Shown: positions 25,016-62,569 of the stretch, piece after piece
How positions within the stretch are numbered: the stretch's first letter is position 1
How the letters are laid out: every line of letters begins with the position of its first letter
Origin: Candidatus Palauibacter irciniicola
Lineage (GTDB): Bacteria; Gemmatimonadota; Gemmatimonadetes; Palauibacterales; Palauibacteraceae
Direction: 5' to 3'
NCBI GenBank assembly: GCA_009836005.1
Contig: VXWG01000010.1
Span: forward strand, 69,675 to 133,674
Length of the DNA stretch: 64,000 bases
Notes under the pieces: generated by a model
What the model was told of the DNA's origin: nothing
The model's database searches: none
Seen by the model: only the letters and a program-made list of their open reading frames with translations
Program-made: the position numbers and the translations under genes

Positions 25016-26398
25016 TCAGGTTCGAAACAGCTCTTGCTGCAGCTGGCCGACGCGTCCGCGAAGGGTGGGGTCGGAGGCCATGTCCGCCTCGACCTTGTTG
25101 ACGGAGTGGATGACGGTCGAGTGATTCCGGCCGCCGAAGAGGTGGCCGATGTCGGAATAGGGCAGGTCCAGATGCATCTTGATGAGGTACATGGCGACCT
25201 GCCGGGGCACCGTCACGGTGCGGTTCCGCCTTTTCGACGTGAGTGCTTCCACGGAGACGCCCCAGGAGGCGGCGATGCGGGCACGGACTTCCTCCGCGGA
25301 CACTTCGATCACGTGCTCGTCCGCCTCGTTGCCTTCGGGCCCCAGTGCGTCGCGCGCCATGTCGAGCGATATCTCGCGTCGCGTGAGCGAACTGAAGGCG
25401 AGGAGCTTGATGAGAGCCCCCTCGAGTTGCCGGACCGAGGTACGCCGACTCCGCGCCACGTACTCGATGACATCGTCTCCGATTTCGATCCCGTCCTCAT
25501 CGGCCTTCTTGCGCAGGATGGCGGAACGCGTCTCCAGGTCGGGGGGCTGGATGTCGGTGACGAGACCCCACTCGAAACGGGAAACGAGACGTTCCTGGAG
25601 CCCGGGGATGTCCTGCGGGGGCCGGTCGCTCGTGATGACGATCTGCTTCTTGGCGTCGTAGAGCGCGTTGAACGTGTGGAAGAACTCCTCCTGCGTCCCT
25701 TCCTTGTTGGCGATGAAGTGGACGTCGTCGATGAGCAGCACATCGATACGGCGATATCGTTCGCGGAAGAGGGCAGTCTGCCCGGTCCGGATCGCGTCGA
25801 TCATCTCGTTGGTGAACTGCTCCGAGGGGACGTAGGCGACCTGGCAGTCCGGGAGGCGGTCGAGAATCGTGTTTCCGATCGCGTGCATCAGGTGTGTCTT
25901 GCCGAGACCGGTGCCGCCCCAGATGAAGAGCGGGTTGTACGTGGTGGCGGGCGCGGCCGCCACGCGGTCGGATGCCGCGGCGGCGAGTTCGTTGCTGCCG
26001 CCAATGACGAAGCGCGCAAAGGTGTAGCGTTCGTTCAGCGCCGCGGCCGCCGGAAGGCCTCCGCGATTCGGCGTCTGCGCGGCCAGCGCGTGACCGGGGT
26101 CTCCGGGGTAGGGTTCGGTGATTTCCGGGAAGTCGAGACGTTCCTCGGCTCCCTTGTGCTCGAAGCGGAGCCGGAGCCGCGCGCCGAGCTCTCGCTCGGA
26201 GATGTCCCGCAGGAGAGTTCCGTATTTGTCCTCGACCCATTCGACGGCGAACCTCGTGGGCGCGGACACGACGAGCGTATCGTCGGAAAGGGAAACGGCC
26301 TCGGTCGATCCGAGCCAGGTACGGTAGGTCTGCTCCGGGAGCACGAGCTTCGCCGACGCGCGAATCTTGATCCAGGCCTCGTGTGCAGTCAGCTCCAT
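25016..26398 (-). CDS. dnaA: chromosomal replication initiator protein DnaA
   Basis: Walker A GGTGLGKTHLMHAIGN, Walker B DVLLIDDVHF and the C-terminal DNA-binding helix-turn-helix RQVAMYLIKMHLDLPYSDIGHLFGGRNHSTVIHS are all present. Confidence 0.97.
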   Translation of the reverse strand: MELTAHEAWIKIRASAKLVLPEQTYRTWLGSTEAVSLSDDTLVVSAPTRFAVEWVEDKYGTLLRDISERELGARLRLRFEHKGAEERLDFPEITEPYPGDPGHALAAQTPNRGGLPAAAALNERYTFARFVIGGSNELAAAASDRVAAAPATTYNPLFIWGGTGLGKTHLMHAIGNTILDRLPDCQVAYVPSEQFTNEMIDAIRTGQTALFRERYRRIDVLLIDDVHFIANKEGTQEEFFHTFNALYDAKKQIVITSDRPPQDIPGLQERLVSRFEWGLVTDIQPPDLETRSAILRKKADEDGIEIGDDVIEYVARSRRTSVRQLEGALIKLLAFSSLTRREISLDMARDALGPEGNEADEHVIEVSAEEVRARIAASWGVSVEALTSKRRNRTVTVPRQVAMYLIKMHLDLPYSDIGHLFGGRNHSTVIHSVNKVEADMASDPTLRGRVGQLQQELFRT

Positions 26399-27389: not shown

Positions 27390-29108
27390 ATGGAGCGTCG
27401 TCTGCTTCTGGCCATCGCGCTGATGGTCGGCGTGATGATCCTCTCGAACGTGTTCTTCCCGCCGGCCGAGAGGCCCGTGGCGCCGGCGTCGGCCGACAGC
27501 GCGCAGACGCCGGAGACCGCGGACGCGGCGGATGAGCTGACCCGCCTTTCCGCGGAGGAACGAGCGGCGCAGGAGGTGGCGGCGGTGCTGGCCGAAGCGG
27601 AGGATACGCCCGCGGTTGCGGAGGAGACGGAGGAAACCGCTGCGGCCCGCGAGAGCTCGATCGTCACGGTCCGGTCGGAACTGTACGAGTACCGGTTCGA
27701 CACGCGGGGCGCGCGACTCGTGGGCGCGACGATGCTCGCGCACCGGAACTTCGCCGAGGGCGGACATGGCGGCCCCAACGTCGAACTGGTGCGGCCCGAC
27801 GATTCGATCCTGGCGTACGCGCTGACGCTGCGTGGCGACACGGTTTCCCTCGGGTCGATCGCCTTCACGGCGTCGACGTCCACGCTCGAGGTGCGGGATG
27901 GGCCCGCGGAACTGCGCTTCGAGGCCGCGATCGGAGAGGTCACATTCGATGTCTCGTATCGCTTCCACCCGGACGATTACCGCATCGACGTGAGCGGCGG
28001 GCTGCGCGGTCTGGGGGATGTGGGGCACGTCGTTCTCGTGGGCCTCGGCCGCGGGATCGAACGCAACGAGGCCGTGCCCCGGGAGGACCAGGCCGCGATG
28101 TCGCTCGTCACCCGGAGCCGCTCCGGGCAGATCGCGGCCGAGCGGCTGGACCGCGTGGACGACGGCGAGATGAGGCCGGCCTCCGGCGGTCCGTTCAGTT
28201 GGGCCGCATCGAAATCGAAGTACTGGCTGGCCGCCGTCGTCGCGCCGCCGGGAGGGCCGGGCATCGGGGGCGTGATGCTGCGGGGTGTGCCCGAGGAGGA
28301 GGCGGCGGAGATGCAGGCCGCGCTGCCGGTACCCGCCGGCAGCGCCGGCTTCGAGTACGTGGCCTACATCGGACCGCAGGACTTCGCGCGGCTGCAGGCC
28401 GTGGGGCAGGAACTCCACAATGTGAACCCCGTCGGCTGGCGCTGGCTCCGGTGGTTTACCCGACCGTTCGGGAACCTGATCGTCGCGATCCTGATCTGGA
28501 TGCACGAGTCGTTCTCGCTGGCGTACGGCTGGGTCCTGATCCTGTTCGGCGTCGGGTCGCGGATCATCCTGTCGCCGCTGTTCCACATCTCGGGCCGCGC
28601 ACAGATGAAGCAGATGGCGCTGCAGCCGGAGATCAAGAAGCTGCAGGAGCGTTACAAGGGCGACCCGCAGCGCCTGCAGCAGGAGCAGATGAAGCTCTTT
28701 CGGGAACACGGGGTCAACCCGCTGGGCGGCTGTCTGCCCATGTTTCTGCCGCTCCCGATTCTGATCACCCTCTTCTTCGTGTTCCAGAACACGATCGAGT
28801 TCCGCGGCGTGCCCTTCCTGTGGCTGCTGGATCTCTCCCTCAGGGATCCCCTCTTCATCGTGCCCATCCTGATGGGCGGATCGATGCTGCTGCTGAACTG
28901 GATCACGCAGCGGGGCATGCAGACGAACGCGCAGATGAAGATGATATCCTACGTGTTGCCGGTCGTCTTCACCTTCTTCTTCGCCAACTTCGCGGCCGGG
29001 CTGAACCTGTACTACACGGCCTCCAACGTCATGTCGCTGCCGCAGCAGATGTACCTCTCCCGGGAACGCAGGAAGGCACAGCCGGCGCCCTCCCGACAGA
29101 AGGAGTAG
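27390..29108 (+). CDS. yidC: membrane protein insertase YidC
   Basis: 572 aa with an N-terminal transmembrane segment, a large periplasmic domain, and the C-terminal 60Kd_IMP core (SPLFHISGRAQMKQMALQPEIKKLQERYKGDPQRLQQEQMKLFREHGVNPLGGCLPMFLPLPILITLFFVF). Confidence 0.95.
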   Translation: MERRLLLAIALMVGVMILSNVFFPPAERPVAPASADSAQTPETADAADELTRLSAEERAAQEVAAVLAEAEDTPAVAEETEETAAARESSIVTVRSELYEYRFDTRGARLVGATMLAHRNFAEGGHGGPNVELVRPDDSILAYALTLRGDTVSLGSIAFTASTSTLEVRDGPAELRFEAAIGEVTFDVSYRFHPDDYRIDVSGGLRGLGDVGHVVLVGLGRGIERNEAVPREDQAAMSLVTRSRSGQIAAERLDRVDDGEMRPASGGPFSWAASKSKYWLAAVVAPPGGPGIGGVMLRGVPEEEAAEMQAALPVPAGSAGFEYVAYIGPQDFARLQAVGQELHNVNPVGWRWLRWFTRPFGNLIVAILIWMHESFSLAYGWVLILFGVGSRIILSPLFHISGRAQMKQMALQPEIKKLQERYKGDPQRLQQEQMKLFREHGVNPLGGCLPMFLPLPILITLFFVFQNTIEFRGVPFLWLLDLSLRDPLFIVPILMGGSMLLLNWITQRGMQTNAQMKMISYVLPVVFTFFFANFAAGLNLYYTASNVMSLPQQMYLSRERRKAQPAPSRQKE

Positions 29109-32176: not shown

Positions 32177-32980
32177 GTGCGGCGATCAGCGAGGGGTGGA
32201 CTGATTTTGGGTCGGGTGATCGCGATTGCGAATCAGAAGGGTGGGGTCGGCAAGACCACGACGGCGATCAACCTCGGCGCCTCGCTGGCGATCGCGGAGC
32301 GCAACACGCTCGTGATCGATTGCGACCCGCAGGGGAACGCGACCTCCGGGTTCGGGCTGCGCAAGGACGGCGACGTCCCCAGCGTGTACGACTGCCTTGT
32401 AAACGGACAGCCGCTTCAGGCGGCGGTGCGGCCGGAAGTCCACTTCCCGTGCCTGTCCGTGGTGTCCGCGAGTCGGGACCTGACCGGCGCCGAAGTGGAA
32501 CTGATCGATCGATCGGACCGCCAGCGAATCCTCGGCCGGAAGATCGAGGCTCTGCGGGGCGACTTCGAGTATATCCTGATCGATTCACCGCCGTCCCTCG
32601 GGCTCCTCACGCTGAACGCACTGGCGGCCGCCGACGCCGTGCTCATCCCGATTCAGTGTGAGTTCTATGCGTTGGAGGGGCTCAGCCAGCTCCTGAACAC
32701 CGTGCGGCTGGTGCAACGCAGCATCAACCCGGAACTCGAAATCGAGGGAGTGCTGCTGACGATGTACGATTCGCGCCTCAACCTGGCCAAACAGGTAGCC
32801 GCCGAGGCGCGCGAGTACTTCGGGGGCAAGGTCTTCGACACGATGATCCCCCGGAACATTCGGCTCGCCGAAGCCCCGAGTTTTGGAGAGCCGATCGCTC
32901 TGTACGATGTCCTGTCGAGCGGGGCCCGCGGATACCTGAGCCTGGCCCGGGAGCTGATCGATCGGCACAGGGGTTCATAG
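32177..32980 (+). CDS. parA: chromosome partitioning ATPase ParA (Soj)
   Basis: Deviant Walker A KGGVGKTT (IAIANQKGGVGKTTTAINLG). Its 3' end abuts the parB ATG. Confidence 0.95.
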   Translation: MRRSARGGLILGRVIAIANQKGGVGKTTTAINLGASLAIAERNTLVIDCDPQGNATSGFGLRKDGDVPSVYDCLVNGQPLQAAVRPEVHFPCLSVVSASRDLTGAEVELIDRSDRQRILGRKIEALRGDFEYILIDSPPSLGLLTLNALAAADAVLIPIQCEFYALEGLSQLLNTVRLVQRSINPELEIEGVLLTMYDSRLNLAKQVAAEAREYFGGKVFDTMIPRNIRLAEAPSFGEPIALYDVLSSGARGYLSLARELIDRHRGS

Positions 32981-45748: not shown

Positions 45749-46660
45749 TCAGGCGCGGGAGACGTACGCCGCCAGGCCCGTCGCGAGATCGCGCGGTCGA
45801 AACGCCGGAAAGCGGCGACGGGCCAGGTCGGAATCGGCGATTCCATCCTGGGTTGCGAAGTCCACGGCGTCGCGCGACAGGATCTGGCCCGGGAGACGCT
45901 CCGCACATCCCGCGACGAGCTTAACGAGCCCTTCCGGGACGTGCAGAATCACCCGGCGACGGCCGAGCGCCGCCATGGCCGTCCGCACGACGTCGTCCAG
46001 CGACAGGACATCCGGGCCACCCGCCTCGAGAGTGAGCCCGTCTCCCGCCGAACCCAGCGTAGCCTCGCACACCAGGTCCGCCAGATCATCCACATGTATC
46101 GGGGTAATGCGCCCGGAGCCGTCCCCCAGTTGGGGAAAGACGAACGGAATCGTGCGAATGAGCGCGATGAAGCGGTTCAGGCTTCGGTCTTCGGGGCCGT
46201 AGACCCATGAAGGTCGAACGATGACGTGGGCGAGGCCCGAGTCCCGCACCGATGCCTCCGCCAACCCCTTGGCGCGATACCAGGTACGCGCGGAGCCGGG
46301 ATCGGCCCCGACCCCGGACAGGTAGACGAGCTTGCGTACTCCCGCCTCCACCGCGGCCTCCACCAGGGCGGCGGTGCCGCGGGCGTCGACCTCCATGAAC
46401 GTCCGGCCGCGGGCGGGCGCCTCCACCGGATAGCCCGGGAACTGGACGGAGAGAATGGCCGCGTCCACCGCGTCCATCGCCCGGACGAGGGTCGCGGGCC
46501 GACGCACATCTCCCGCGACGTATTCCGCCGGGAGCCCGAGACGCCCGGCGCCGGCGGGGTTCCGGGTCAGTACGGCAACCCGCGCCCCGCGACCGTGCAG
46601 CCCCCGGACGAGGGCACGCCCGAGAAAGCCTGTTCCACCCGCGACGAGGACCCGCTGCAT
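45749..46660 (-). CDS. NAD(P)-binding SDR / NmrA-like epimerase-family protein
   Basis: Rossmann motif VLVAGGTGFLGRAL at the N-terminus. Confidence 0.75.
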   Translation of the reverse strand: MQRVLVAGGTGFLGRALVRGLHGRGARVAVLTRNPAGAGRLGLPAEYVAGDVRRPATLVRAMDAVDAAILSVQFPGYPVEAPARGRTFMEVDARGTAALVEAAVEAGVRKLVYLSGVGADPGSARTWYRAKGLAEASVRDSGLAHVIVRPSWVYGPEDRSLNRFIALIRTIPFVFPQLGDGSGRITPIHVDDLADLVCEATLGSAGDGLTLEAGGPDVLSLDDVVRTAMAALGRRRVILHVPEGLVKLVAGCAERLPGQILSRDAVDFATQDGIADSDLARRRFPAFRPRDLATGLAAYVSRA

Positions 46661-48831: not shown

Positions 48832-51556
48832 CTAGACCGGCTCGACCCTCACGGGGCAGACCTTCAACTCGGCCGTGTGCGTGATCGGGTCGTAGCCGCC
48901 TCCGGTGAGGAAGTTCACCGGCACGTCGTTGAAGCTGAATGACGCGAACACGGTCCCGGGCGGGGATCGGTCGTTCGCCTCGACCTTGATCCGCACCTCG
49001 CCGCGCGGGCTCGACATCATGGCCCAGCCGCCGTCCTCGAGACCCCATTTCGACACGTCGGTCGGGTGCATCTCGAGGCGCTCTTCCGACAGCAGGTACT
49101 CGATCCCCGCCGCACGCCCCGTCTGCGTTCTCGTGTGATAGGCCGGCAGTCGGCGCCCCGTCGTAAGCCAGATCGGGTATTCCTCCGAGATCGTCTCCGC
49201 CGGATCCCGGTACCGGATCAACTGGAAGATCCCGCGCCCGTTCTCGAACTCGCCCTGGTGAAGGATGGGCGTGCCGGGGTGACCCCGCTCCGGCACCGGC
49301 CAGTGGTACTCGCCGTGCTCGATGACGTCCCAGTCCAGGCCGGCGTAGATCGGCGAGAGCGAGCAGAGTTCGTTGAACACCTGCTTGGCCGACTCGAACT
49401 CGAAGCCCTTCAACCCCATGCGCTGCGCGATACGGGACACGCACCACCAGTCGGGCTTCGCCTCGCCCGGCGGGTCCACCGCCTTCCGCAGACGCTGAAC
49501 GCGCCGCTCCGTGTTGGAGCACACGCCGTCCGTCTCCGCCCACGCGGTGGCCGGGAGCACGACATCGGCCAGCTGCGCCGTCTCGGTGAGGAAGATGTCG
49601 ATCACCACGAGGTGGTCGAGACTCCTGAGCGCATGCTCGCAATGCTCCCGGTCGGGGTCCGTGACGACAGTGTTCTCGCCGTTGATGATCATGGCGCGGA
49701 TCCGGTCGCCGCACATGTCGAGTGCCGTGACCTTCGTGGGCCCCAGTTCCAGGTCGACCTCCCGACCGTAGGCGGCGGCGAACTTCGCCTGGTACGCCGG
49801 GTCGAGTACGTCCTGGAAGCCGGGGTAGTTGTTCGGCAGCGCCCCGGAGTCTCCCGCGCCCTGGATGTTGTTCTGGCCGCGCATCGGATTGATCCCGGTC
49901 CCCTCGCGGCCGACGTTGCCGGTCATGAGGGCGAGATTGCAGAGACTCTGCACGTTGTCCACGCCGCAGATGTGCTCCGTGATCCCGAGCGTGTAGTAGA
50001 TTGCTCCGCGTTCGGCCTTCGCATACCAGCGCGCCGCCTCCGCGATCAACTTCGCGTCCACCCCGGTGATGGACTCGGCCCATTCCGGCGGGTATTCCAG
50101 GACGTGCTCCACGAAGTCCCGGCCTTCCGTCGTGCGCGCGGCGACGAAGTCCTCGTCCATCAGTCCCTCGCGCGCGATCACGTGGGCCATGCCGAGCAGG
50201 AGCGCGACATCGGATCCCACCCTCAGCGGCAGGTAGATGTCGGCCATCTCGGCCAGCGCAATCCGTCTCGGATCGGCAACGATGAGCTTGGCGCCCTGGG
50301 CCACGGCGCGCTTGATACGGGTGGCCGCAACGGGATGGCACTCGGTCATGTTGGTCCCGATACAGAAGATCACATCGGGCTTATCCATGTCCGCGAGTGG
50401 ATTCGACATCGCCCCCCGTCCGATAGAGGCCGCCAGACCGGCGACCGTGGGAGCGTGTCAAGCACGGCTGCAGTTGTCGATCTGGTTCGTACCGAACGCG
50501 CCTCGGATGAACCGCTGCATCATGTAGGCGGCTTCGTGCGGCGCACGTCCGGAGGCGACGCCGTACACCGAATGCCTGCCGTGATTCTCCACCGCCGCCG
50601 TGAACCCCGCCGCCGCGCGGTCGAGGGCCGTGTCCCAGTCGGTTTCGTGGAGTTCGCCGTCCTCGCCCCGCACCATCGGATAGGCCAGCCGGTCGGGGTG
50701 CTGCACGAAGTCGAACGCGAACTGCCCCTTGACGCAGAGCGCGCCCTCGTTGGCGGGCCCATCCATCGCCGGCTGGACGCCGATCAGCTTGTCGCCCCGC
50801 GACATCAGGTCGACGGCACACCCGACGCCGCAGTACGGGCAGACGGTCCGCGTCTTCTCGGTCTCGCCCGGCACGTCCGCGTTCGCGAGCGCCTTGATGT
50901 CGGCGAGGGCTCCGGTCGGGCAGGTCTGCACGCACTGCCCGCAGAACGTGCACGCCGAGTCTCCCAGCAGGCCCTCGAACTCCGTGGTGATCTGCGTCTC
51001 GAATCCGCGGTTCATGACCGAGATCGCGTAGTCGCCCTCCTGCTCGGCGCACACCCGCACGCAGCGGTAGCAGGAGATGCAGTTCTCGTAGTCTCGGAGG
51101 ATGAAGGGGTTGTCGTCGTCCGGCCGGCTGCGGCCGGACCTGGCCCCGGCGAAGCGGCCCGTCCGGGCGTCGTAGCGGTCGAGCAGGACCGCCATCTCCT
51201 GCGAGGCGTATCCGGAGAGCGGGTCGACATCCATGTCGCGGTTCTCGGAGGCGACCATCTCCATCAGCACGCGGCGGTGCATGTCGAGCCGCGCCGATCG
51301 GGTCGTGATCCGCATCCCGGGCTCCGCCCGCATGGTGCAGGAGGCGACCGGGTTGCGGGCGCCGTCGAGTTCCACGATGCAGAGGCGGCAGCCGCCGAAG
51401 GCTTCCAGGCGCGGATCGTAGCACAGCGTCGGGATCTCCTTGCGGTGCCGCTCGGAGACCTCGTACAGGCTCTCGCCCCGACGGACGCCGACCTTCTCGC
51501 CGTCGAGCGTGATCTCGAAGTCGAAGCCCGTGCCGTTGCCCGAATTGTCGCTCAAA
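48832..51556 (-). CDS. fdhA: NAD-dependent formate dehydrogenase catalytic (alpha) subunit, a selenoprotein: in-frame TGA (Sec) at 50458-50460
   Basis: The N-terminal part (2Fe-2S and 4Fe-4S domains, ...GTNQIDNCSRA) ends at a TGA. The downstream ORF continues in the same frame (HAPTVAGLAASIGRGAMSNPLADMDKPDVIFCIGTNMTECHPV), aligning with E. coli FdhF CARV-U-HGPSVAGL....DLVFVFGYNPADSHPI. The likely start is TTG at 51556 with a GGAGG RBS; the ORF upstream of that is Arg-rich. Confidence 0.8.
50413..50457 (-). other. bacterial SECIS-like element immediately 3' of the UGA-Sec codon
   Basis: mRNA: UGA CA[CGCUCCC]ACG[GGUCGCC]GGUCU[GGCGGCC]UCUAUCGGAC[GGGGGCG]. This is a two-tier hairpin with an apical GGUCU(G) loop like the E. 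coli fdhF SECIS, starting 2 nt after the UGA. Confidence 0.6.
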
Positions 51557-51680
51557 CCCACCTCCGGAGGCAGGTGTCGTGTCCCGACCCCGCACCGCTG
51601 GAAACTGCCGGGCCCACTAACATGATGCGCCGCGCGCGCGGCGACAAATCCGGTCGCCGCCCCCCTGTCCGGAATCTCCG

Positions 51681-53381
51681 CTAGACGGACTGAGCGACGT
51701 GCCGGGAGACGCGATCCGGGAAGTAGCGGATCAGGCTCTCCGTGATGAGCGGGGCCGCCTGTCCGAGGCCGCACGCGCTCGTCTGCATCATCGTGTCGCC
51801 CAGATCGTGCACCTCGTCGATCCAGGCGCCGATGTCGGGCGGGCCGTCGCCGTGCAGGCGCTCCGTCAGGCGCTGCGTGCCGATGCGGCAGGGGAAGCAC
51901 TTGCCGCAGGATTCCTCGGCGAAGAACTCCATGGCGGAATGCGCGACCTCGATCATGTCCCGCGAGTCGTCGAACACCATGATGCCGCCCGCCCCCAGAA
52001 AAGACCCCTTCGAGCGGATGTCGGGCTCGTCCAGCGTGACGTCGAGCGCCTCGCCCGCCAGGAAGCCGCCCGAGAGCCCCGCCATCGTCACCGCCTGGAT
52101 CTTCCGTCCGCCCGGCACGCCGCCGGCCCAGTCGTCGATCAGCGTCATCAGCGGGAAGCCCATCGGTACTTCGTAGTTGCCGGGGCGGGCGACGTCCCCG
52201 GAGAGCGAGATCACCTTCGTGCCCGCGTGGTCGCCGATCCCGAGCCCGCGGTACCAGTCGGCGCCGTGCACGAGGATATGGGGCACGGACGCCAGCGTTT
52301 CGACGTTGTTCACGACCGTGGGAAGGTCTTCGTACCCGTGCGTCACCGGGAAGGGCGGCCGGTTGCGCGGGAACGGGTGCTTGCCCTCGAGGCTGTTGAG
52401 AAGAGACGTCTCCTCGCCGCAGATGTAGGCGCCCGCGCCGCGGCGCACCCAGAGGTCGAACGGTCGTCCGGGCCCCAGGGCATCCGGCCCCAGCAGCCCG
52501 GCGTCGCGGGCCTCTTCCAGGGCCGTCTCCAGGATGTGCAGCGTATCCGGATATTCGTAGCGAAGGTAGATGAATCCCCGCATGGCGCCCGTCGCGAAGC
52601 CGGCGGCGATCATCCCTTCGATCACCGCGTGCGGGTCGTAGTCCATCAGCGCCCGGTCCTTGAAGCAGCCCGGCTCCCCCTCGTCCGCGTTACAGACGAT
52701 GGTCCTGGGCTCGCCCGCGGCCTCCGCCACCGCCCGCCACTTGCGTCCGGTGGGGAAGCCGGCGCCGCCACGCCCCGCCAGGCCGCTGGCGTCGATGATG
52801 TCGAGGAGCGCATCGGGCCGCCCGCGGAGGGCGTTCTCGAGGCCGGCATAGCCGCCCGACGCCCGATAGCCCGCCAGCGTCGCGCGTCCGGGAGTCCGAA
52901 TGTGCGCGAACACGCATTCCTCAACGTCCGGGTGTGGAGCGGGAGGGAGAGGCGAGGGTCGGGAGGCGAGTTCCGCGACCGTGGTTCCGCAGAGGACGCG
53001 GTCCCGGTCCAGGACCGGAATCGGCTCATCGCAGCGGCCGGGGCAGGGCATCGCCTGGGCGTTCGGCAGCCCGGCCAGCAGTTCGTTCGCCCCGGCCAGC
53101 GCGCAGATCGGCCCCGTGCAGACGCGGGCGCGAGCGTAGCCGTCGGGGTCACGGGAAAAGTGGTGGTAGAAGGTTATCGTCCCGAAGAGATCGGCGATCG
53201 GAATCCGCAGGTCCTCGGAGATGGCTCTGAGGGACTCCTCGGAGAGAAACCCATCCCTCTCGTGGAATTCGTGCAGCAGCGGAAGCAGGGGAGCCGGTCG
53301 TGCCCGCCATTTCGCGAGCAGATCCGCGTCCGAGGGCATGTTCATGCCGTCATAGTTACCCGCAGACGCGAATAGCGGCAA
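51681..53381 (-). CDS. NAD-dependent formate dehydrogenase diaphorase subunit, fused NuoE-like (2Fe-2S) plus NuoF-like (FMN/NADH, 4Fe-4S) (FdsGB fusion)
   Basis: The N-terminal thioredoxin-like 2Fe-2S motif is CTGPICALAG...CPGRC. The C-terminal 51-kDa motifs are GRGGAGFPTGRKW and ESCGKCFPCRIG. Confidence 0.9.
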   Translation of the reverse strand: MPLFASAGNYDGMNMPSDADLLAKWRARPAPLLPLLHEFHERDGFLSEESLRAISEDLRIPIADLFGTITFYHHFSRDPDGYARARVCTGPICALAGANELLAGLPNAQAMPCPGRCDEPIPVLDRDRVLCGTTVAELASRPSPLPPAPHPDVEECVFAHIRTPGRATLAGYRASGGYAGLENALRGRPDALLDIIDASGLAGRGGAGFPTGRKWRAVAEAAGEPRTIVCNADEGEPGCFKDRALMDYDPHAVIEGMIAAGFATGAMRGFIYLRYEYPDTLHILETALEEARDAGLLGPDALGPGRPFDLWVRRGAGAYICGEETSLLNSLEGKHPFPRNRPPFPVTHGYEDLPTVVNNVETLASVPHILVHGADWYRGLGIGDHAGTKVISLSGDVARPGNYEVPMGFPLMTLIDDWAGGVPGGRKIQAVTMAGLSGGFLAGEALDVTLDEPDIRSKGSFLGAGGIMVFDDSRDMIEVAHSAMEFFAEESCGKCFPCRIGTQRLTERLHGDGPPDIGAWIDEVHDLGDTMMQTSACGLGQAAPLITESLIRYFPDRVSRHVAQSV

Positions 53382-55908: not shown

Positions 55909-57156
55909 GTGCAGAATCCTACATCCCAAGCTGCGGTGTCCCGGTCGGGCTCAATGAAAAGCCGCGTCCAACCGCCTTCGATCCTTGCCAAGTGTCGTGA
56001 ACTAGCGACCGTGCACGACCTCCGCGAGGCCGGTCTCTATCCGTACTTCATGCCCATCGAGGCTTCTCATGACACTTGGGTCGTCATCGACGGCGCCCGC
56101 AAGATCATGGTGGGCTCCAACAACTACATGGGACTCACGCACGATCCGCGCGTTCTCGAGGCGGCCCGCGAGGCCCTCAACAAGTTTGGAAGCGGCAATA
56201 CGGGCAGCCGCTTCCTCAACGGCAACCTCGATCTTCATGAGCAACTCGAGGCCGAACTCGCCGAATTCACCGGCATGGAGGCCGCGCTCGTATTCTCGAC
56301 CGGCTACCAGACGAATCTGGGCACGCTGGGCGCGTTGATCGGTCGCGCGGACACCGTCTACATCGACAAGCTGGACCACGCCAGCCTCCAGGACGGCGTA
56401 CGCCTGGGGCTCGGCCGCACGCGCCGCTTCAACCACAACGACTTCGCGACCCTGCGCCGCATGCTCGAGGCCGAGACGCCCTCGCGCGGCAAGCTCATCG
56501 CGGTGGACGGCGTGTACAGCATGGAAGGCGACATCGCCGATCTGCCCACGCTGGTCGAACTGAGGCGAGAGTACGACGCGGCCATCCTGGTGGATGACGC
56601 GCATGCCGTGGGCGTTCTGGGCGAGACCGGGGCCGGGACCGCCGAGCACTGGGGGCTCACCGATGAGGTGGACCTGATCCTCGGCACGTTCTCCAAATCC
56701 TTCGCCTCGATCGGCGGCTTCGTGGCGGGCCGCGCCGATGTGATCGACTACCTCCAGCACAACGCCCGCGCCCTCATGTTCAGCGCGAGCATGCCTCCCG
56801 CCTCCGCCGCCACCGTGCTGAAGGCGCTGGAGATCATCCGCGATGAACCGGAGCGCCGGGAGCAGCTCTGGAAGAACACGCACAGGATGATGGAGGGCTT
56901 CAAGTCGATCGGGTTCGACATCGGGCCGACCGAGACCCCGATCGTCCCCATTCTCATCGGGCCCATGGAGAAGACCTTCGTGTTCTGGCGCGCTCTGTTC
57001 GAAGCGGGCGTCTTCACGAACCCGGTCGTCCCCCCCGCGGTGCCCGAGGGGAGTTGCCGCCTGCGCACGAGCTACATGGCCACGCACTCGGACGACGACC
57101 TCGATTTCGTGCTCGAACAGGTGGAGCGCGTGGGGAAGAAGCTCGGCGTCGTCTGA
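55909..57156 (+). CDS. spt: serine palmitoyltransferase (alpha-oxoamine synthase family, Spt-type)
   Basis: It is near-identical in key blocks to Sphingomonas Spt: IMVGSNNYMGLTHDPRVLEAAREALNKFGSGNTGSRFLNG, VFSTGYQTNLG, VDGVYSMEGDIADL, and the PLP-Lys motif GTFSKSFASIGGFV. BioF and Kbl instead have GTLSKA / GTLGKA. FSASMPPASAA is also present. Confidence 0.85.
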   Translation: MQNPTSQAAVSRSGSMKSRVQPPSILAKCRELATVHDLREAGLYPYFMPIEASHDTWVVIDGARKIMVGSNNYMGLTHDPRVLEAAREALNKFGSGNTGSRFLNGNLDLHEQLEAELAEFTGMEAALVFSTGYQTNLGTLGALIGRADTVYIDKLDHASLQDGVRLGLGRTRRFNHNDFATLRRMLEAETPSRGKLIAVDGVYSMEGDIADLPTLVELRREYDAAILVDDAHAVGVLGETGAGTAEHWGLTDEVDLILGTFSKSFASIGGFVAGRADVIDYLQHNARALMFSASMPPASAATVLKALEIIRDEPERREQLWKNTHRMMEGFKSIGFDIGPTETPIVPILIGPMEKTFVFWRALFEAGVFTNPVVPPAVPEGSCRLRTSYMATHSDDDLDFVLEQVERVGKKLGVV

Positions 57157-57172
57157 ACCGGCGCCTCCCATC

Positions 57173-58303
57173 ATGACGAGTCTCGCCCCCTCCGTGCGCG
57201 TCGTCCCCGTCGAGAGCCGCGCCGATCTCAAGCGCTTCATCGACCTGCCGTGGTCCATCTACCGGGGCGATCCCGACTGGGTGCCCCCGCTGAAGAGAGA
57301 CGTGCGGGCGGCGTTCGATCCGACGAAACACCCGTTCCACCAGCACTCCGAAGTCCAGCCCTATCTCGCCTTGCGCGATGGCCGGGCCGTGGGCCGGATC
57401 TGCGCGATCCGGAACCGGAATCACGAGCGGACGCACGACGAATCCGTGGGGTTCTTCGGCTGGTTCGAATGCGTCGACGACCCGGGGGTGGCCGCGGCGC
57501 TGCTCGACGCGGTCCGGGCCTGGCTGCGGGAACGCGGGCTTACCGCGATGCGGGGTCCCACGAGCTTCTCGACCAACGAGACCTGCGGACTGCTCATCGA
57601 CGGGGATCCCGGGCCTCCGGTCGTCCTCATGGCGTACAACCCGCCGTACTATCCCGCCCTGATGGAGGCCGCGGGGCTGCGGAAGGTCAAGGATCTCTTC
57701 GCCTGGCTCATGAAGAAGGGCGATTGGCCGCCGCACCTCTTCCGCGCCGAAAAGGTCGTGACCCGAAGGTACGGCATCCGGGTCAAGACGATGGACATGT
57801 CGCGCTTCGACGAAGAACTCGGACGCGTCCAGCGCCTGTACAACGCCGCGTGGGAGAAGAACTGGGGTTTCGTCCCCATGACCGAGGCCGAGATGGATCA
57901 CATGGCGGCCGAACTCAAGCCCATACTCGACCCCGAACTCGCGCTCTTCGCCGAGACGCCGGAGGGCGAGACGGCCGGCTTCGCCCTTGCCCTCCCGGAC
58001 TTCAACCAGGTGCTGCGCCGGATGAATGGCCGACTCTTCCCCTTCGGGATTCTCAAGGCGCTCATCCACAGGCGAAAAATCACGTGCATGCGCGTGATCA
58101 TCCTCGGGCTCGCCGAGGAATGGCGGGGCAAGGCCGTCGATGTCCTCCTCTACCTGTGGCTGTTCAGGAACGGGATCGCCGCCGGGATGACGTCCGCCGA
58201 ACAGTCCTGGATCCTCGAGGACAACCAGAAGATGAACCAGGCCATCGAGCGTCTCGGCGGCAGGATCTACCGGACCTACCGGCTGTACGAAGCGGCCCTT
58301 TAG
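57173..58303 (+). CDS. tandem-GNAT-fold N-acyltransferase (candidate bacterial ceramide synthase-like)
   Basis: 376 aa with an acyl-CoA N-acyltransferase-like C-terminal half (GFALALPDFNQVL...RVIILGLAEEWRGKAVDVLLYLWL). It lies 16 nt after spt and ends in TAG overlapping the next GTG. Confidence 0.55.
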   Translation: MTSLAPSVRVVPVESRADLKRFIDLPWSIYRGDPDWVPPLKRDVRAAFDPTKHPFHQHSEVQPYLALRDGRAVGRICAIRNRNHERTHDESVGFFGWFECVDDPGVAAALLDAVRAWLRERGLTAMRGPTSFSTNETCGLLIDGDPGPPVVLMAYNPPYYPALMEAAGLRKVKDLFAWLMKKGDWPPHLFRAEKVVTRRYGIRVKTMDMSRFDEELGRVQRLYNAAWEKNWGFVPMTEAEMDHMAAELKPILDPELALFAETPEGETAGFALALPDFNQVLRRMNGRLFPFGILKALIHRRKITCMRVIILGLAEEWRGKAVDVLLYLWLFRNGIAAGMTSAEQSWILEDNQKMNQAIERLGGRIYRTYRLYEAAL

Positions 58304-59256
58304 TGGCATCGGTCTTTTTGACGGGGGGAAGCGGGTTCCTCGGCGGCCATCTCGCCGAGGCCCTCGTCGCGGCCGGACACCGGGTCACCGCGAGCGTGCG
58401 GCGAACGAGCGACACGCGCCGTCTCGATCGGCTCGAGTTGACGAAGACGGAACTCGACCTCGGCGGGGAGGGCAGGCCGGAAGCGGCCGCGGCACTCGCG
58501 GATTGCGCCGCCGTCGTGCATTGCGGCGCGCTCACGCGGGCCCGCGATGAGTCGGAGTTCATGGCCGTGAACGCGGCCGGCACGCGCAAGCTCGCGAGGG
58601 CGGCGGCGGAGGCGGGAGTTCGACGGTTCGTTTTCATCAGCAGCCTCGCCGCCCGCGGTCCGGACGGCGCGGACGGACCCGTGAGCCCGTACGGTCGGTC
58701 GAAGGCCCAAGCCGAGGCGGCGCTCGCCTCCGTCCGCGGGTCGATGGAGGTCGCCGTGCTCCGGCCGGGGGGGGTCTACGGCCCGCGCGACTCCGACCTG
58801 TTGCCGCTCTTCCGGCTCGCGGCGCGAGGGTGGACCGCGATTCCGCGCAGCCACGCGCCCCTGCAGCCGGTGTACGTCGCCGATGTCGTCTCGGCCGTCC
58901 TGTCGGCGCTCGACGCGGCGCCGGCGCCGCTCCCGCTCCCCATCGCCGGGGCGGAACGCCCGTCCTGGGGCGCGGTGGCGCGCGCGCTGATGGCCGCCGT
59001 GGACCGTCCCGGCCGCGTCCTGCGGTTGCCGCCCGCGCTCTTTCTCGCGGCCGGGGCGCTGTCGGAACTCGCCGGCCGCCTGACGGGGAGGGCTCCCGCG
59101 TTCGACCGGCGACAGGCGCGGGACCTGTCCGCGTACGGTTGGACCTGCGACATCGAGCCGAGCCGAAAGGTTCTCGACCCCTGGCGTCCGAGGGTCGGCA
59201 TCGAAGACGGGCTCGCGCGCACCGCCGAGTGGTATCGCCGAAGGGGCTGGCTGTGA
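58303..59256 (+). CDS. NAD-dependent epimerase/dehydratase-family SDR (candidate 3-ketosphinganine/oxidised-ceramide reductase, CerR-like)
   Basis: A GTG at 58303 overlaps the upstream TAG. Rossmann motif FLTGGSGFLGGHL and a catalytic YxxxK (SPYGRSK). It is the 3' part of the ORF-track frame 57250..59256, whose 5' part is an alternative-frame artefact. Confidence 0.65.
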   Translation: MASVFLTGGSGFLGGHLAEALVAAGHRVTASVRRTSDTRRLDRLELTKTELDLGGEGRPEAAAALADCAAVVHCGALTRARDESEFMAVNAAGTRKLARAAAEAGVRRFVFISSLAARGPDGADGPVSPYGRSKAQAEAALASVRGSMEVAVLRPGGVYGPRDSDLLPLFRLAARGWTAIPRSHAPLQPVYVADVVSAVLSALDAAPAPLPLPIAGAERPSWGAVARALMAAVDRPGRVLRLPPALFLAAGALSELAGRLTGRAPAFDRRQARDLSAYGWTCDIEPSRKVLDPWRPRVGIEDGLARTAEWYRRRGWL

Positions 59257-60140
59257 GCGCCGGCCGCGGCGGAGGGCTCCTTCCCGTCGATCACGTAGCC
59301 ATCGGCTACTTCGGTTGCACGGGCCTCATTTCGCTGGCGTTCGGCGGCCTGTCCGGCGCCGGCATCGCGGCGGCCCACGCGATCGCCGTCTTCGGGATCA
59401 CGCGCCTTGCGGCCTGGCAGCCCCGCGGCGGCCTCGCCGCGATCGCGCGGGCGGCGTACGCCGTGCTCCTCACGCCCCTCCTGTACGCGGAACTCGCGAT
59501 CCTCAACCGCTTTTTCACGCAGCGGTACTTCGACGGGACGGTGCAGGCGTGGGATGCCGCCATGTTCGGCGGACAGCCGAGCATCGGCCTCAGCGCGTCG
59601 CTCCCCTGGCTCCCCTTCTCCGAGGTGTTGCACCTGGGCTACTTCGCCTACTACGCCATCATCCCCGCCGCCATCCTGGGCGTGTTCGCGACGCGGGGGT
59701 TCGAGGCCATGCAGCGCACCGCCCTCGCCGTGGCCGCCGCCTTCTTCGTCTCCTATCTCATCTTCATGTTCTTCCCGGTCGCCGGCCCCCGATACGAGTT
59801 CGCGCAGATCGGCGGCGAGATCGGCGAAGGGACGCTGTTCGGGATCGTGCACGGGATCCTGGAGGCCGGCTCGTCGAAGGGCACGGCCTTCCCCAGTTCC
59901 CACATCGCCGCCTCCCTGGCCGGGGTCTTGGCCGCCGGGCGCGAGGATCGGCGCTGGTTCTGGCTCCTCATCATCCCGGAACTCGCGTTGACTGCGGGGA
60001 CGGTGTACGGTCGCTTCCACTATGCGGCCGACGCCCTCGCGGGCCTCCTGCTCGGGCTGCTGGTCTGCGTCGTACTGCGCGCGGCCGACGCCGGGGCCCA
60101 CGGCCCCCGGGCCGCCGCAGACGGGCAACCCGCGGGCTGA
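59253..60140 (+). CDS. PAP2-superfamily membrane phosphatase
   Basis: A GTG overlaps the upstream TGA (GTGA). Multiple transmembrane segments. The PAP2 motifs are PSSH (FPSSHIAASLAG) and SRxxxxxHxxxD-like (RFHYAADALAG). Confidence 0.7.
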   Translation: MSAGRGGGLLPVDHVAIGYFGCTGLISLAFGGLSGAGIAAAHAIAVFGITRLAAWQPRGGLAAIARAAYAVLLTPLLYAELAILNRFFTQRYFDGTVQAWDAAMFGGQPSIGLSASLPWLPFSEVLHLGYFAYYAIIPAAILGVFATRGFEAMQRTALAVAAAFFVSYLIFMFFPVAGPRYEFAQIGGEIGEGTLFGIVHGILEAGSSKGTAFPSSHIAASLAGVLAAGREDRRWFWLLIIPELALTAGTVYGRFHYAADALAGLLLGLLVCVVLRAADAGAHGPRAAADGQPAG

Positions 60141-60166: not shown

Positions 60167-60747
60167 AAGGTGACCTTCAGAGGGATGACGTGGACGAACG
60201 CGACCTGATCGCCTGCGCCAAAGCGGGAGAGCGATCCGCGATGGGGGAGTTGTACGAACTCCACGCGCGACGCGTCTACACGGTGATTCGCCGCCTCGTG
60301 GGCGACGATCACCTCGCGGAGGACCTCTCGCAGGAAGCGTGGATCCGTGCGTTCGAGAAACTGCACCTCTTCCGGGGAGACGCGGCCTTCGGCACGTGGC
60401 TCTACAGGCTGGCGACGAACGTGGCGCTCAACCGGCTGCGCCGGTCGTCGAAACGACGTCCGGTGGAATCCGCCGCCGAGCTTCCGCGGGTGGTGCGGGC
60501 GCACGACGACGTGATCGTGACGCGGCGGGTCCTGACCAGGGCGCTGGACCAGTTGCCGCCGGGGTACCGGAGGGTCCTCGTGCTGCACGACGTGGAAGGC
60601 TGGACGCACAACGACATCGCCGAAGCTCTGGGGTGTTCGCCCGGCACGTCGAAATCGCAGTTGCACAAGGCGCGGGCGCGCATGCGGAAGCTCATCGCTC
60701 CGGAGGATTCCGGGAACGGCGGTGCGCGGGGCGAAGCGCGCCTCTGA
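60167..60747 (+). CDS. ECF (group IV) sigma-70 family sigma factor
   Basis: Region 2 (ELYELHARRVYTVIRRLVGDDHLAEDLSQEAWIRAFEKL) and region 4 (LPPGYRRVLVLHDVEGWTHNDIAEALGCSPGTSKSQLHKAR) are present. GTG start candidates lie at 60167 and 60191. Confidence 0.85.
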
Positions 60748-60761
60748 GAGGGATAGAAGAG

Positions 60762-61460
60762 ATGGCGAACCACATGGATGCCGAGCGCATCTCGGCACTG
60801 CTCGACGAGCCGTGGGCGGACCGGGACTGCCGGGCCCACCTCGAGACGTGCAGGGACTGCCAGGCGGAGTTCGAGAGGCTGAGCCGGATGCGCATGGCGC
60901 TGTCCGCACTTCCGGATGAGAAGGCGCCGGCCGGACAGTGGGCCAGCATCGAAGCCGCGCTCGATGCCGGTGAGGCGCGTGCCGGCGTCCGCCGGATCGG
61001 AGGAGGCCTCGCCGGCCGTCTCTTCGTCCGGGGACCGCTCCAGGCCGCCGCCGCCCTCGTGTTGTTCGCCGGCGGCGTCATCGCCGGCCTCCAGTTCACG
61101 GGCGGACGGTCCGCGAACTCGCCGGCGGCGGATCTCGCGGATCTCCCGTCCGTCGTCTCCACCGATGACGGTCGCGCCCTCGTGGACGGGCTCAGCCGGA
61201 TGGAATCGCTGCGGTCGCCGCTGAGACAGGTCGGAGAGGGGGGGATGGATCCCGCTTCGGAAGGCGGAGCGAGGGAGCGGGATCCCCTGGAGATGGCGCA
61301 GAGACTGGCGATGCTGGAGGGATATATTCGGGCACTGCGGGACGGTCTCGAGACGAGTCCCGACAATCCGTTCGCCAGCGCCTATCTGCTGGAACTCGTG
61401 GAGACGCGTGATCGGCTCGCGGAGGACCTCGGCCGCGCGAGCGGGACGCGAACCTGGTGA
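60762..61460 (+). CDS. anti-sigma factor (ZAS-like HxxxCxxC zinc motif, single transmembrane segment)
   Basis: CRAHLETCRDCQAEF is followed by a transmembrane helix LQAAAALVLFAGGVIAGL. It is immediately downstream of the ECF sigma gene. Confidence 0.7.
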   Translation: MANHMDAERISALLDEPWADRDCRAHLETCRDCQAEFERLSRMRMALSALPDEKAPAGQWASIEAALDAGEARAGVRRIGGGLAGRLFVRGPLQAAAALVLFAGGVIAGLQFTGGRSANSPAADLADLPSVVSTDDGRALVDGLSRMESLRSPLRQVGEGGMDPASEGGARERDPLEMAQRLAMLEGYIRALRDGLETSPDNPFASAYLLELVETRDRLAEDLGRASGTRTW

Positions 61461-62569
61461 CCCGGCTCCTCGCGCGGCCGCGTACGCCGCCGGCCTCGGC
61501 TCTGGCACTGGCTCTGGCCGCCCTGCCGTTCGCCGCTCTCGCCGGCGCCGCGCAGGAGGCCGGGACGGCGGAGTCCGCCGGCTGGATCGGGGTGCGGGTC
61601 GAGGAACGCTTCAACTGCGGCTGGGAGACTTCGGAGGACTGGAAGAACTGCACGCTCGTCCTCCGGATTCGCGAGATGCAGGAGGGCGGTCCGGCGGAGC
61701 GCGCGGGGCTCCGTGCCGGCGACCGGCTCGAGACGATGGACGGCGTGGAACTCACCCTCGCCAACCTGCCGGACAGGCTCGCATCGATTCGAGCGAGCGT
61801 TCCCGTTCGGCTCGAAGTGACCCGGGACGGAGTTCATCACACGTTCGAGGTCGTGCCCGACGTCCGGCCGCCGGACGCGGACAACCTTCCGATGGTGGGC
61901 CGCCGGACGGTGGTGGCCACGGCCGGTCCTCCGCAGCGGACCACCTTCGTCCTCTGGCTGACGGATCCGGCCGAGGGCGACGGCCCCGGCTTCGCCATCA
62001 CGGTCCGCGATACGGAGGATGTCGGCGTCGCCGTGGAACCCTCCGCCGTGCGGGTCGTCGACGGCCGGCTCAACGTACTTCCGGTGCGCGACCGGCCGGC
62101 CTCGGAGTTGCCGGCCGTCCGCCGGGAAGTGCTGAGCGATCTCCAGCGGGAATCGGAATCCGCGTATCGGGACTTCACGGTCGCGCTGGAGCGCGTCGGG
62201 GCGGTACGGGCCCGCCTCTCGCCGGTGGAGTTCCGGCGCCGCGCGATTCGCATCGCCGAACTGGCACTGGCGGAGACCGGACTCGCCGTCCGCTTCCAAC
62301 GCACGTTCGCCGGGGCCGAGTTCGAGCCCGTGCGCGACTTTTCCGACCGGCGCGGCCTCGACGGCCTCCTCGTGCTCAGGGTCGCCGGCGGGACGGTCAC
62401 GGACCGGCTCGGGCTCGGGCCGGGAGATCTCCTCGTGAGAGCGGGCGACCGTCCGATCCGCGACCTCGAGGATCTCGTCGCCGCGCTGGAATCGGAAGGG
62501 AACGAGGGTCTCGGGGTGGTGTGGGTTCGGGGAGGCGAAGAGATGAGCGGAGTCTGGCCCCGGCGCTGA
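61457..62569 (+). CDS. secreted double-PDZ-domain protein
   Basis: A GTG overlaps the anti-sigma TGA. There is a signal peptide (ALALALAALPFAALAGAAQ) and two PDZ cores (GGPAERAGLRAGDRLETMDGVEL; LGLGPGDLLVRAGDRPIRDLEDL). Confidence 0.7.
   Translation: MTRLLARPRTPPASALALALAALPFAALAGAAQEAGTAESAGWIGVRVEERFNCGWETSEDWKNCTLVLRIREMQEGGPAERAGLRAGDRLETMDGVELTLANLPDRLASIRASVPVRLEVTRDGVHHTFEVVPDVRPPDADNLPMVGRRTVVATAGPPQRTTFVLWLTDPAEGDGPGFAITVRDTEDVGVAVEPSAVRVVDGRLNVLPVRDRPASELPAVRREVLSDLQRESESAYRDFTVALERVGAVRARLSPVEFRRRAIRIAELALAETGLAVRFQRTFAGAEFEPVRDFSDRRGLDGLLVLRVAGGTVTDRLGLGPGDLLVRAGDRPIRDLEDLVAALESEGNEGLGVVWVRGGEEMSGVWPRR

Follow-up and report, generated by a model that had tools for sequence, protein, structure and literature searches.

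What would a compact run of four genes in the bacterium Candidatus Palauibacter irciniicola make? We analyzed a stretch of 64,000 nucleotides (nt) from this organism, which we call the window (its GC content is about 69%), along with the list of its open reading frames and their translations. Four of these frames lie one after another on the same strand at positions 55909-60140. The first three resemble the enzymes of the known bacterial route to ceramide: serine palmitoyltransferase (Spt), the N-acyltransferase bCerS, and the reductase CerR. The fourth gene raises a further question: is its product a phosphatase, or does it belong with Aur1, the inositol phosphorylceramide (IPC) synthase of yeast? 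We think it probable that the operon follows the bacterial route as far as ceramide and that an Aur1-type enzyme then adds a phosphate-linked head group.

All four genes are on the + strand and they are closely packed. The gene for Spt (55954-57156, 400 amino acids) is followed, with a spacing of 16 nt, by bcerS, which encodes a tandem-GNAT N-acyltransferase (57173-58303, 376 amino acids). The stop codon of bcerS (TAG, 58301-58303) has one base in common with the start codon of the third gene (GTG, 58303-58305), which gives a TAGTG overlap at 58301-58305. The third gene (58303-59256, 317 amino acids) encodes a CerR-like, NAD(P)-dependent extended short-chain dehydrogenase/reductase (SDR), which we predict is a 3-oxo-ceramide or 3-ketosphinganine reductase, and its end overlaps the start of the fourth gene by the four bases GTGA (59253-59256). 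The fourth gene (59253-60140, 295 amino acids) encodes an Aur1/IPC-synthase-like lipid phosphotransferase (Pfam family PAP2_3), which is a predicted ceramide phospho-head-group transferase. We read both overlaps off the sequence; the initial annotation of this DNA had also described co-directional genes with these two overlaps, and its coordinates were exact. In Pfam, the four products match Aminotran_1_2, GNAT models (weakly), the Epimerase family of SDRs, and PAP2_3/PAP2, respectively. The longest possible frame for spt begins with a GTG at 55909, but the ATG at 55954 fits better with the lengths of orthologs (393 amino acids in L001 and L010, two loci from Gemmatimonadota genomes), and it also agrees with the point at which similarity to a solved Spt begins. 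In a scan for promoters and terminators, we found no sigma-70-like promoter and nothing that scored above shuffled sequences. There were 4 terminator-like sites, versus 2.4 expected, which is not above shuffles either.

Is the first gene really an Spt? In a search of the PDB, its product scored 450 bits against the Spt of Sphingobacterium multivorum (8guh/3a2b), as compared to 260 bits for Kbl, 249 bits for cysteate-C-fatty acyltransferase, and 225 bits for BioF. The alignment to 8guh has few gaps over residues 13-396, and the GTFSKS motif, with the lysine that binds pyridoxal phosphate, lies opposite GTFSKS. The top NCBIfam model is SerpalmtaseCFB, for the Bacteroidota type of Spt, with 529 bits (versus 397 for bioF and 380 for Kbl), and the protein is 43% identical to the Spt of a Caulobacter sp. 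The S. multivorum enzyme, which is of the acyl-CoA type, soluble, and homodimeric, is the nearest solved relative, although it comes from another phylum. Judging from these comparisons, the identification as Spt stands: the first gene encodes an alpha-oxoamine synthase that is closer to characterized Spt than to BioF, Kbl, or the cysteate acyltransferase, and it is predicted to condense serine.

Alternatively, the enzyme might take cysteate, alanine, or glycine, and the operon would then lead to a sulfonolipid or to a 1-deoxy-ceramide-type lipid. The product of the first gene does miss the equivalog cut-off for SerpalmtaseCFB (529 versus 640 bits), and the cysteate enzyme is a detectable relative, as its 249 bits show. 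Also, 1-deoxy-ceramides and sulfono-ceramides are reported from marine bacteria. But the score for a bona fide Spt is 200 bits above the score for the cysteate enzyme, and Pfam scans of the window's genes identified no cysteate synthase nearby. Furthermore, an Aur1-type transferase requires a C1 hydroxyl, which is provided only by a base that derives from serine. We consider a different amino acid substrate to be very unlikely. We also considered sulfonolipid (capnine) synthesis and set it aside on the gap between the scores for Spt and for cysteate-C-fatty acyltransferase.

The second gene was not matched by any model when we searched the NCBIfam library with it. To obtain a reference bCerS, we relied on the cloning primers for ccna_01212 (supplement of PMC11087976). 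The forward primer located the gene in the genome of Caulobacter vibrioides, and the C-terminus of the protein found in this way agrees with the reverse primer. The product of the second gene is 38% identical to this protein (CCNA_01212) from end to end (376/384 residues aligned, E = 2e-82), and both NCBI and UniRef give the name "ceramide synthase" to near relatives of the Caulobacter bCerS. The structure model has the tandem-GNAT fold, and in the window, bcerS adjoins both spt and the SDR gene. On this evidence, the second gene is a true homolog of bCerS, and the N-acylation of a sphingoid base is its predicted activity.

We also came across one metagenome contig with two tandem paralogs of bCerS (L009, 7001-9323, P0099). 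The first copy, called as a protein of 602 amino acids, reads on into the second copy, in its N-terminal half. Next to the pair is an epimerase-family SDR gene in divergent orientation, and there is no spt within 7 kb.

For the third gene, the reference was a CerR from the neighborhood of a bCerS homolog in a Caulobacter sp. (L008). That homolog is 89% identical to the reference bCerS, and the neighborhood includes an AasR-CerR-ACP-Spt block (ACP is acyl carrier protein). The Caulobacter loci that came from scanning with the primer are 8 kb long and stop short of cerR, and the cerR reverse primer had no match in the metagenome contigs. The product of the third gene contains the motifs TGGSGFLG (TGxxGxxG) and YGRSK (YxxxK) and has no signal peptide. 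It is 31% identical to the Caulobacter sp. CerR ortholog over its full length, including the C-terminal WYR..GWL; the E value of 4e-24, which was obtained with this one reference sequence, falls short of the 1e-30 threshold in PMC11334938. Of the three epimerase-family SDRs in the window, it is the one that best matches CerR (95 bits, versus 53 and 26 for the others), and its top relatives in the PDB, 9g83_P and NDUFA9 chains, are also the top relatives of the Caulobacter CerR. So the third gene is likely orthologous to CerR, an assignment that rests largely on gene context, and it is predicted to be a reductase. The window's two other epimerase-family SDRs are at 45749-46660 and 4440-5564, both on the - strand. 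The one at 45749-46660 is weakly CerR-like (53 bits), and the genome may hold a second reductase that acts on lipids.

Do these genes stay together in related genomes? The nearest homologs of the second and fourth genes are named as Candidatus Palauibacter, Gemmatimonadales, or Gemmatimonadota. When we scanned metagenomes with a PAP2_3 profile, we obtained 478 confirmed stretches, from which we kept 80, with 34-86% identity. We considered a locus to be informative about upstream genes if it had at least 3.7 kb of upstream DNA, which was the case for 41 loci. The spt-bcerS-SDR set lies directly upstream of the PAP2_3 gene, and on the same strand, in 36 of these 41, and an SDR lies immediately upstream of the PAP2_3 gene in 53 of 57 loci. 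Two further loci, L001 and L010, which are from Gemmatimonadota genomes and whose bCerS is about 56% identical to ours, keep the order alpha-oxoamine synthase, GNAT, SDR, PAP2_3, extracytoplasmic function (ECF) sigma factor, (anti-sigma factor), PDZ. L001-L003 have equivalents of the bcerS/SDR overlap, and L010 has an equivalent of the one between the SDR and Aur1-like genes. The initial annotation had proposed that the first three genes form the three-enzyme grouping of the bacterial ceramide route: an Spt and not a BioF or Kbl, a GNAT protein acting as bCerS, and an SDR of the CerR type. Every Spt motif that it quoted is present in the translation of the first gene, and its reading of all three genes agrees with our comparisons to characterized proteins and with the conserved neighborhoods.

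Is the product of the fourth gene a phosphatase? It belongs to PF14378 (PAP2_3; 49.3 bits, versus a gathering cut-off of 27) and not to the classical PAP2 family, and residues 38-313 of yeast Aur1 score 86.4 bits against the same model. The protein has about 8 transmembrane (TM) helices, arranged as an N-terminal pair of helices and a six-TM catalytic core. Using an AF2 model with a predicted local distance difference test (pLDDT) score of 85, we searched for similar structures with Foldseek. The best matches were two structures of yeast Aur1 (template modeling scores of 0.55-0.62), SMSr was third, and phosphatases ranked below. A profile of 30 close PAP2_3 homologs did not match anything in the PDB at E <= 10. 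An exhaustive search for the family identified 4098 members, including 465 at E <= 1e-30, and a profile of 106 sequences did match Aur1 (E = 2e-7), with profile positions 11-280 aligned to Aur1 residues 38-313. Phosphatases match this profile solely over the last ~60-80 residues, and in the comparison of structures they match over ~160 residues. Both the sequence profile and two structure methods give Aur1 as the best match, with an alignment that covers the full length.

The catalytic residues of Aur1 also have counterparts. AFPSSH in the fourth gene lies opposite AFPSLH in Aur1 (His255), GRFHYAADA lies opposite THHYFVD (His294 and Asp298), and FPVAGPRY lies opposite FPAAPPWY. The putative triad of H217, H256, and D260 is thus aligned with His255, His294, and Asp298 of Aur1, and the spacing from the first to the second His is 39 residues in both proteins. 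(PMC12122681 defines the triad of Aur1 and describes what it does in both Aur1 and SMSr.) Among 106 diverse members of the family, the only invariant positions are Y130, P179, P214, S215, H217, H256, and D260. By its Pfam family, by profile search, and by its modeled fold, the fourth gene groups with Aur1 IPC synthase and not with the PAP2 hydrolases.

Nevertheless, we should ask whether genes 1-3 could make ceramide and the fourth gene could encode a true PAP2 phosphohydrolase, which would act on ceramide-1-phosphate, on a sphingoid-base phosphate, or on a phosphorylated head-group intermediate. The protein is in the PAP2 clan, relatives bear the public name "phosphatase PAP2 family protein", and a His-His-Asp triad is common to hydrolases. 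The PAP2 phosphatases PgpB, LpxE, and LPP1 have a PSxH and HxxxD core in common with the fourth gene. Hydrolytic side activities are also reported in the related sphingomyelin synthase (SMS) family. However, the K-x6-RP and SR-x5-H motifs by which these phosphatases bind phosphate are not kept: neither the K-x6-R-P motif (C1) nor the Ser-Arg of the S-R-x5-H-x3-D motif (C3) is conserved across the 106 family members. At position 180, 57 members have Arg and 33 have Tyr or Phe (the equivalent in Aur1 is Trp); at position 209, 49 have Lys or Arg; and at position 254, Gly (52 members) is more frequent than Arg (32). Because these positions are often neutral, the K-x6-RP and SR phosphomonoester motifs are not a feature of the family. 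The Gemmatimonadota subfamily does retain R180, K/R209, and R254, which could bind a phosphomonoester, and this keeps the hydrolase alternative alive. On the other hand, hydrolases match the C-terminal core only, and there is no DAGK_cat-type ceramide kinase in the operon or among its conserved neighbors, while the Caulobacter cluster does have one. Overall, we think that a phosphohydrolase is unlikely.

The initial annotation had favored just such an added phosphatase step, on a phosphorylated sphingoid intermediate, and we do not agree: the fourth gene goes with Aur1, and the operon lacks a ceramide or sphingoid kinase. Its secondary idea, a role in modifying the head group, comes nearer to what we find. 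It had also placed the PAP2-type gene outside of the known scheme for bacterial ceramides. An Aur1-type step after ceramide was already known: BT_1522 of Bacteroides thetaiotaomicron is a homolog of Aur1, and its deletion abolishes phosphoinositol-dihydroceramide, while the phosphatidylethanolamine (PE)-dihydroceramide persists (PMC9246714).

Another possibility is that the fourth gene acts on an envelope lipid that is not a sphingolipid, such as undecaprenyl diphosphate, lipid A, or a glycerophospholipid, and that it sits beside the ceramide genes because they and the ECF sigma factor are part of a common envelope regulon. In keeping with this, LpxE and PgpB are among the structural and profile matches, the proximity of an ECF sigma gene is conserved, and in 5 of the 41 informative loci, the gene is present without spt-bcerS upstream. 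Three of these exceptions have the SDR-PAP2_3 pair only (L066, L069, and L070), and the other two lack all three genes and have unrelated neighbors (L079 and L082). But the start of the gene overlaps the stop of the SDR gene, and the four-gene order is kept in the 36 other loci, both of which favor a common pathway; moreover, the full-length likeness is to an enzyme that uses ceramide. We would be quite surprised if the substrate were not a sphingolipid.

We return to the reading that we favor, in which the operon makes ceramide and the Aur1-type enzyme adds a phosphate-linked head group. Several findings weigh against it. Besides the cut-off that the first gene misses, the five exceptional loci, and the basic residues that are kept in the Gemmatimonadota subfamily, the identity between the fourth gene and Aur1 is only about 15%, which is remote. 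Against CerR, the third gene reaches 87-95 bits, no better than what it scores against hidden Markov models for HpnA (89) and OleD (85). Pfam scans of 30 other genes in the window did not find any inositol, CDP-alcohol, or other head-group genes. And the closest relatives that we found are from metagenome-assembled genomes, without exception.

What we observed are protein homologies, aligned catalytic residues, gene overlaps, and conserved synteny. From these we infer a pathway, including every substrate, the order of the steps, the head group, and the orientation in the membrane. In the first step, Spt would join L-serine and an acyl-CoA to form 3-ketosphinganine; the operon has no dedicated gene for an ACP or for an acyl-ACP synthetase. 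Second, the tandem-GNAT bCerS would N-acylate the 3-ketosphinganine. Third, the CerR-like SDR would use NAD(P)H to reduce the 3-keto group, yielding dihydroceramide. The placement of bCerS before the SDR is borrowed, by analogy, from work on Caulobacter and B. fragilis. Fourth, the Aur1-like membrane enzyme, with its His-His-Asp triad, would take the phospho-head group of a glycerophospholipid and attach it to ceramide at the C1 hydroxyl, with the release of diacylglycerol. In the AF2 model, arginine-rich loops (residues 53-59, ~149, and 229-235) are on one side of the helices, and the triad and the conserved loops are on the opposite side. Given the positive-inside rule, and by analogy to the luminal active site of Aur1, the active site is predicted to face the periplasm.

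Which head group would be added? The product is most likely a phosphosphingolipid: ceramide-phosphoinositol, ceramide-phosphoethanolamine, or ceramide-phosphoglycerol. As there are no inositol genes nearby, the donor lipid may not be phosphatidylinositol. More tentatively, the Aur1-like enzyme may use PE or phosphatidylglycerol. This widespread subfamily of PF14378, with its 465 clusters at E <= 1e-30, would in that case be a candidate for a ceramide-phosphoethanolamine or ceramide-phosphoglycerol synthase. The operon, with the ECF sigma factor, anti-sigma factor, and PDZ genes, would then be a sphingolipid unit of the Gemmatimonadota that is controlled by envelope stress. This extension is possible, but we would not bet on it. 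To our knowledge, the ceramide-phosphoethanolamine and ceramide-phosphoglycerol synthases of bacteria are still unidentified.

The neighboring genes just mentioned lie downstream on the same (+) strand. The ECF sigma factor (60196-60747, with Sigma70_r2 and Sigma70_r4_2 domains) begins 56 nt past the operon. It is followed by a putative anti-sigma factor (60747-61460), which has no Pfam match but has a counterpart after the ECF gene in most of the related loci, and by a PDZ-domain protein (61457-62569), for which the domain is annotated on the syntenic genes of L001 and L010 and tblastn gave matches in several loci. Of 58 informative metagenome loci, 46 have an ECF sigma gene in the 800 bp that follow the Aur1-like gene. 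From this synteny, the ECF sigma factor may be linked to the operon in function, either through control of sphingolipid synthesis by envelope stress or through co-transcription.

Further along, past the PDZ gene, some relatives have genes for a LuxE-like acyl-protein synthetase and a LuxC-like acyl-CoA reductase (L001, 14066-16647; L010, 12902-15143), and L010 also has a 4HBT thioesterase near them. This suggests a lipid module for fatty aldehydes or fatty alcohols beside the sphingolipid operon in those relatives. In our window, which ends 1.4 kb past the PDZ gene, tblastn gave no match to the LuxE/LuxC-like, thioesterase, or 102-amino-acid neighbors.

How does this operon compare to known systems? 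In Caulobacter crescentus, the ceramide genes are CCNA_01220 (Spt), CCNA_01212 (bCerS), and CCNA_01222 (CerR) (Stankeviciute et al. 2022 and Olea-Ozuna et al. 2021, as given in PMC11324152 and PMC11087976). The same three enzyme families are involved (the identities are 43%, 38%, and 31%, in that order), and in both organisms, ceramide genes are clustered with head-group genes. In contrast, Caulobacter relies on a dedicated ACP and a dedicated acyl-ACP synthetase, and its genes, which point in both directions, occupy ~10 kb. Its ceramide phosphoglycerate head group is made via the products of three genes: a DAGK_cat kinase, a CDP-OH transferase, and a Metallophos protein. Palauibacter has no ACP gene there, one compact operon of four overlapping genes, and a head-group enzyme of the Aur1 type. 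The Caulobacter sp. locus (L008, 2847-10001) includes the DAGK_cat, CDP-OH transferase, and Metallophos genes, and two LptF/LptG paralogs lie directly upstream of its bcerS. This adjacency agrees with the title of a 2026 preprint on homologs of Lpt proteins in sphingolipid transport. Unlike that locus, the Gemmatimonadota operon has no Lpt-like genes alongside it. In the Bacteroidota, according to published work, spt, cerS, and cerR do not form a cluster.

As for the fourth gene, its similarities to Aur1 (PDB 9ivc and 9vj3/9vj4) are membership in PF14378, a fold with ~8 TM helices, the spacing of the triad, and ceramide as the predicted acceptor. The differences are the low identity and the absence here of a gene for a Kei1-like partner. 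SMSr, which is a ceramide phosphoethanolamine synthase (PDB 8ijq), is a lipid phosphotransferase with the same triad and with ceramide as its acceptor, as predicted for the fourth gene. BT_1522 differs from the fourth gene in its surroundings: it belongs to a cluster for inositol lipids, which includes MIPS and PIP-synthase genes, and not to the spt operon. A 2024 survey reports Spt-like genes in 38 phyla from its own metagenome-assembled genomes, or 40 with earlier ones, and does not name the phyla in the text. In the literature that we searched, we found no mention of the Gemmatimonadota together with bacterial sphingolipids. All four enzymes come from known families, and there is precedent for the chemistry at every step. 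What appears to be new is the lineage, the joining of an Aur1-type gene to a translationally coupled spt-bcerS-cerR operon, and the conserved neighborhood with the ECF sigma factor.

The rest of the window has the genes of a replication origin: dnaN (23606-24733, - strand), dnaA (25016-26398, - strand), yidC (27390-29108, + strand), and a parA-like ATPase (32177-32980, + strand). These mark a chromosomal replication-origin region, and the window is core chromosome. Upstream of the operon are a divergent pyridine-nucleotide disulfide oxidoreductase, fdhD, and a formate-dehydrogenase cluster. The frames at 50458-51900 and 48832-50409 (- strand) read as one gene of the formate-dehydrogenase alpha type, with an in-frame TGA at 50458-50460 (QIDNCSRA-TGA-HAPTVAGL). 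This TGA is at the classic selenocysteine position. A stable hairpin (GGUCGCC-GGUCU-GGCGGCC) begins ~14 nt past the TGA, with a minimum free energy of -31.5 kcal/mol (z = -2.65), and it is likely a selenocysteine insertion sequence (SECIS) element.

The main value of this analysis is the corrected function for the fourth gene, along with a testable prediction of phosphosphingolipids in the Gemmatimonadota. Proteins of this family that are now annotated as PAP2 phosphatases are more likely to be ceramide head-group transferases. Because the operon has just four genes and is compact, it is a handy cassette for reconstituting a complete bacterial phosphosphingolipid pathway in another host, and it could show which head group is used by an Aur1-type enzyme in bacteria for which phosphatidylinositol synthesis is not known. 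More broadly, we predict phosphosphingolipids in a largely uncultured phylum, in which the relatives of this bacterium include Palauibacterales that are associated with sponges and corals or that live in marine sediment.

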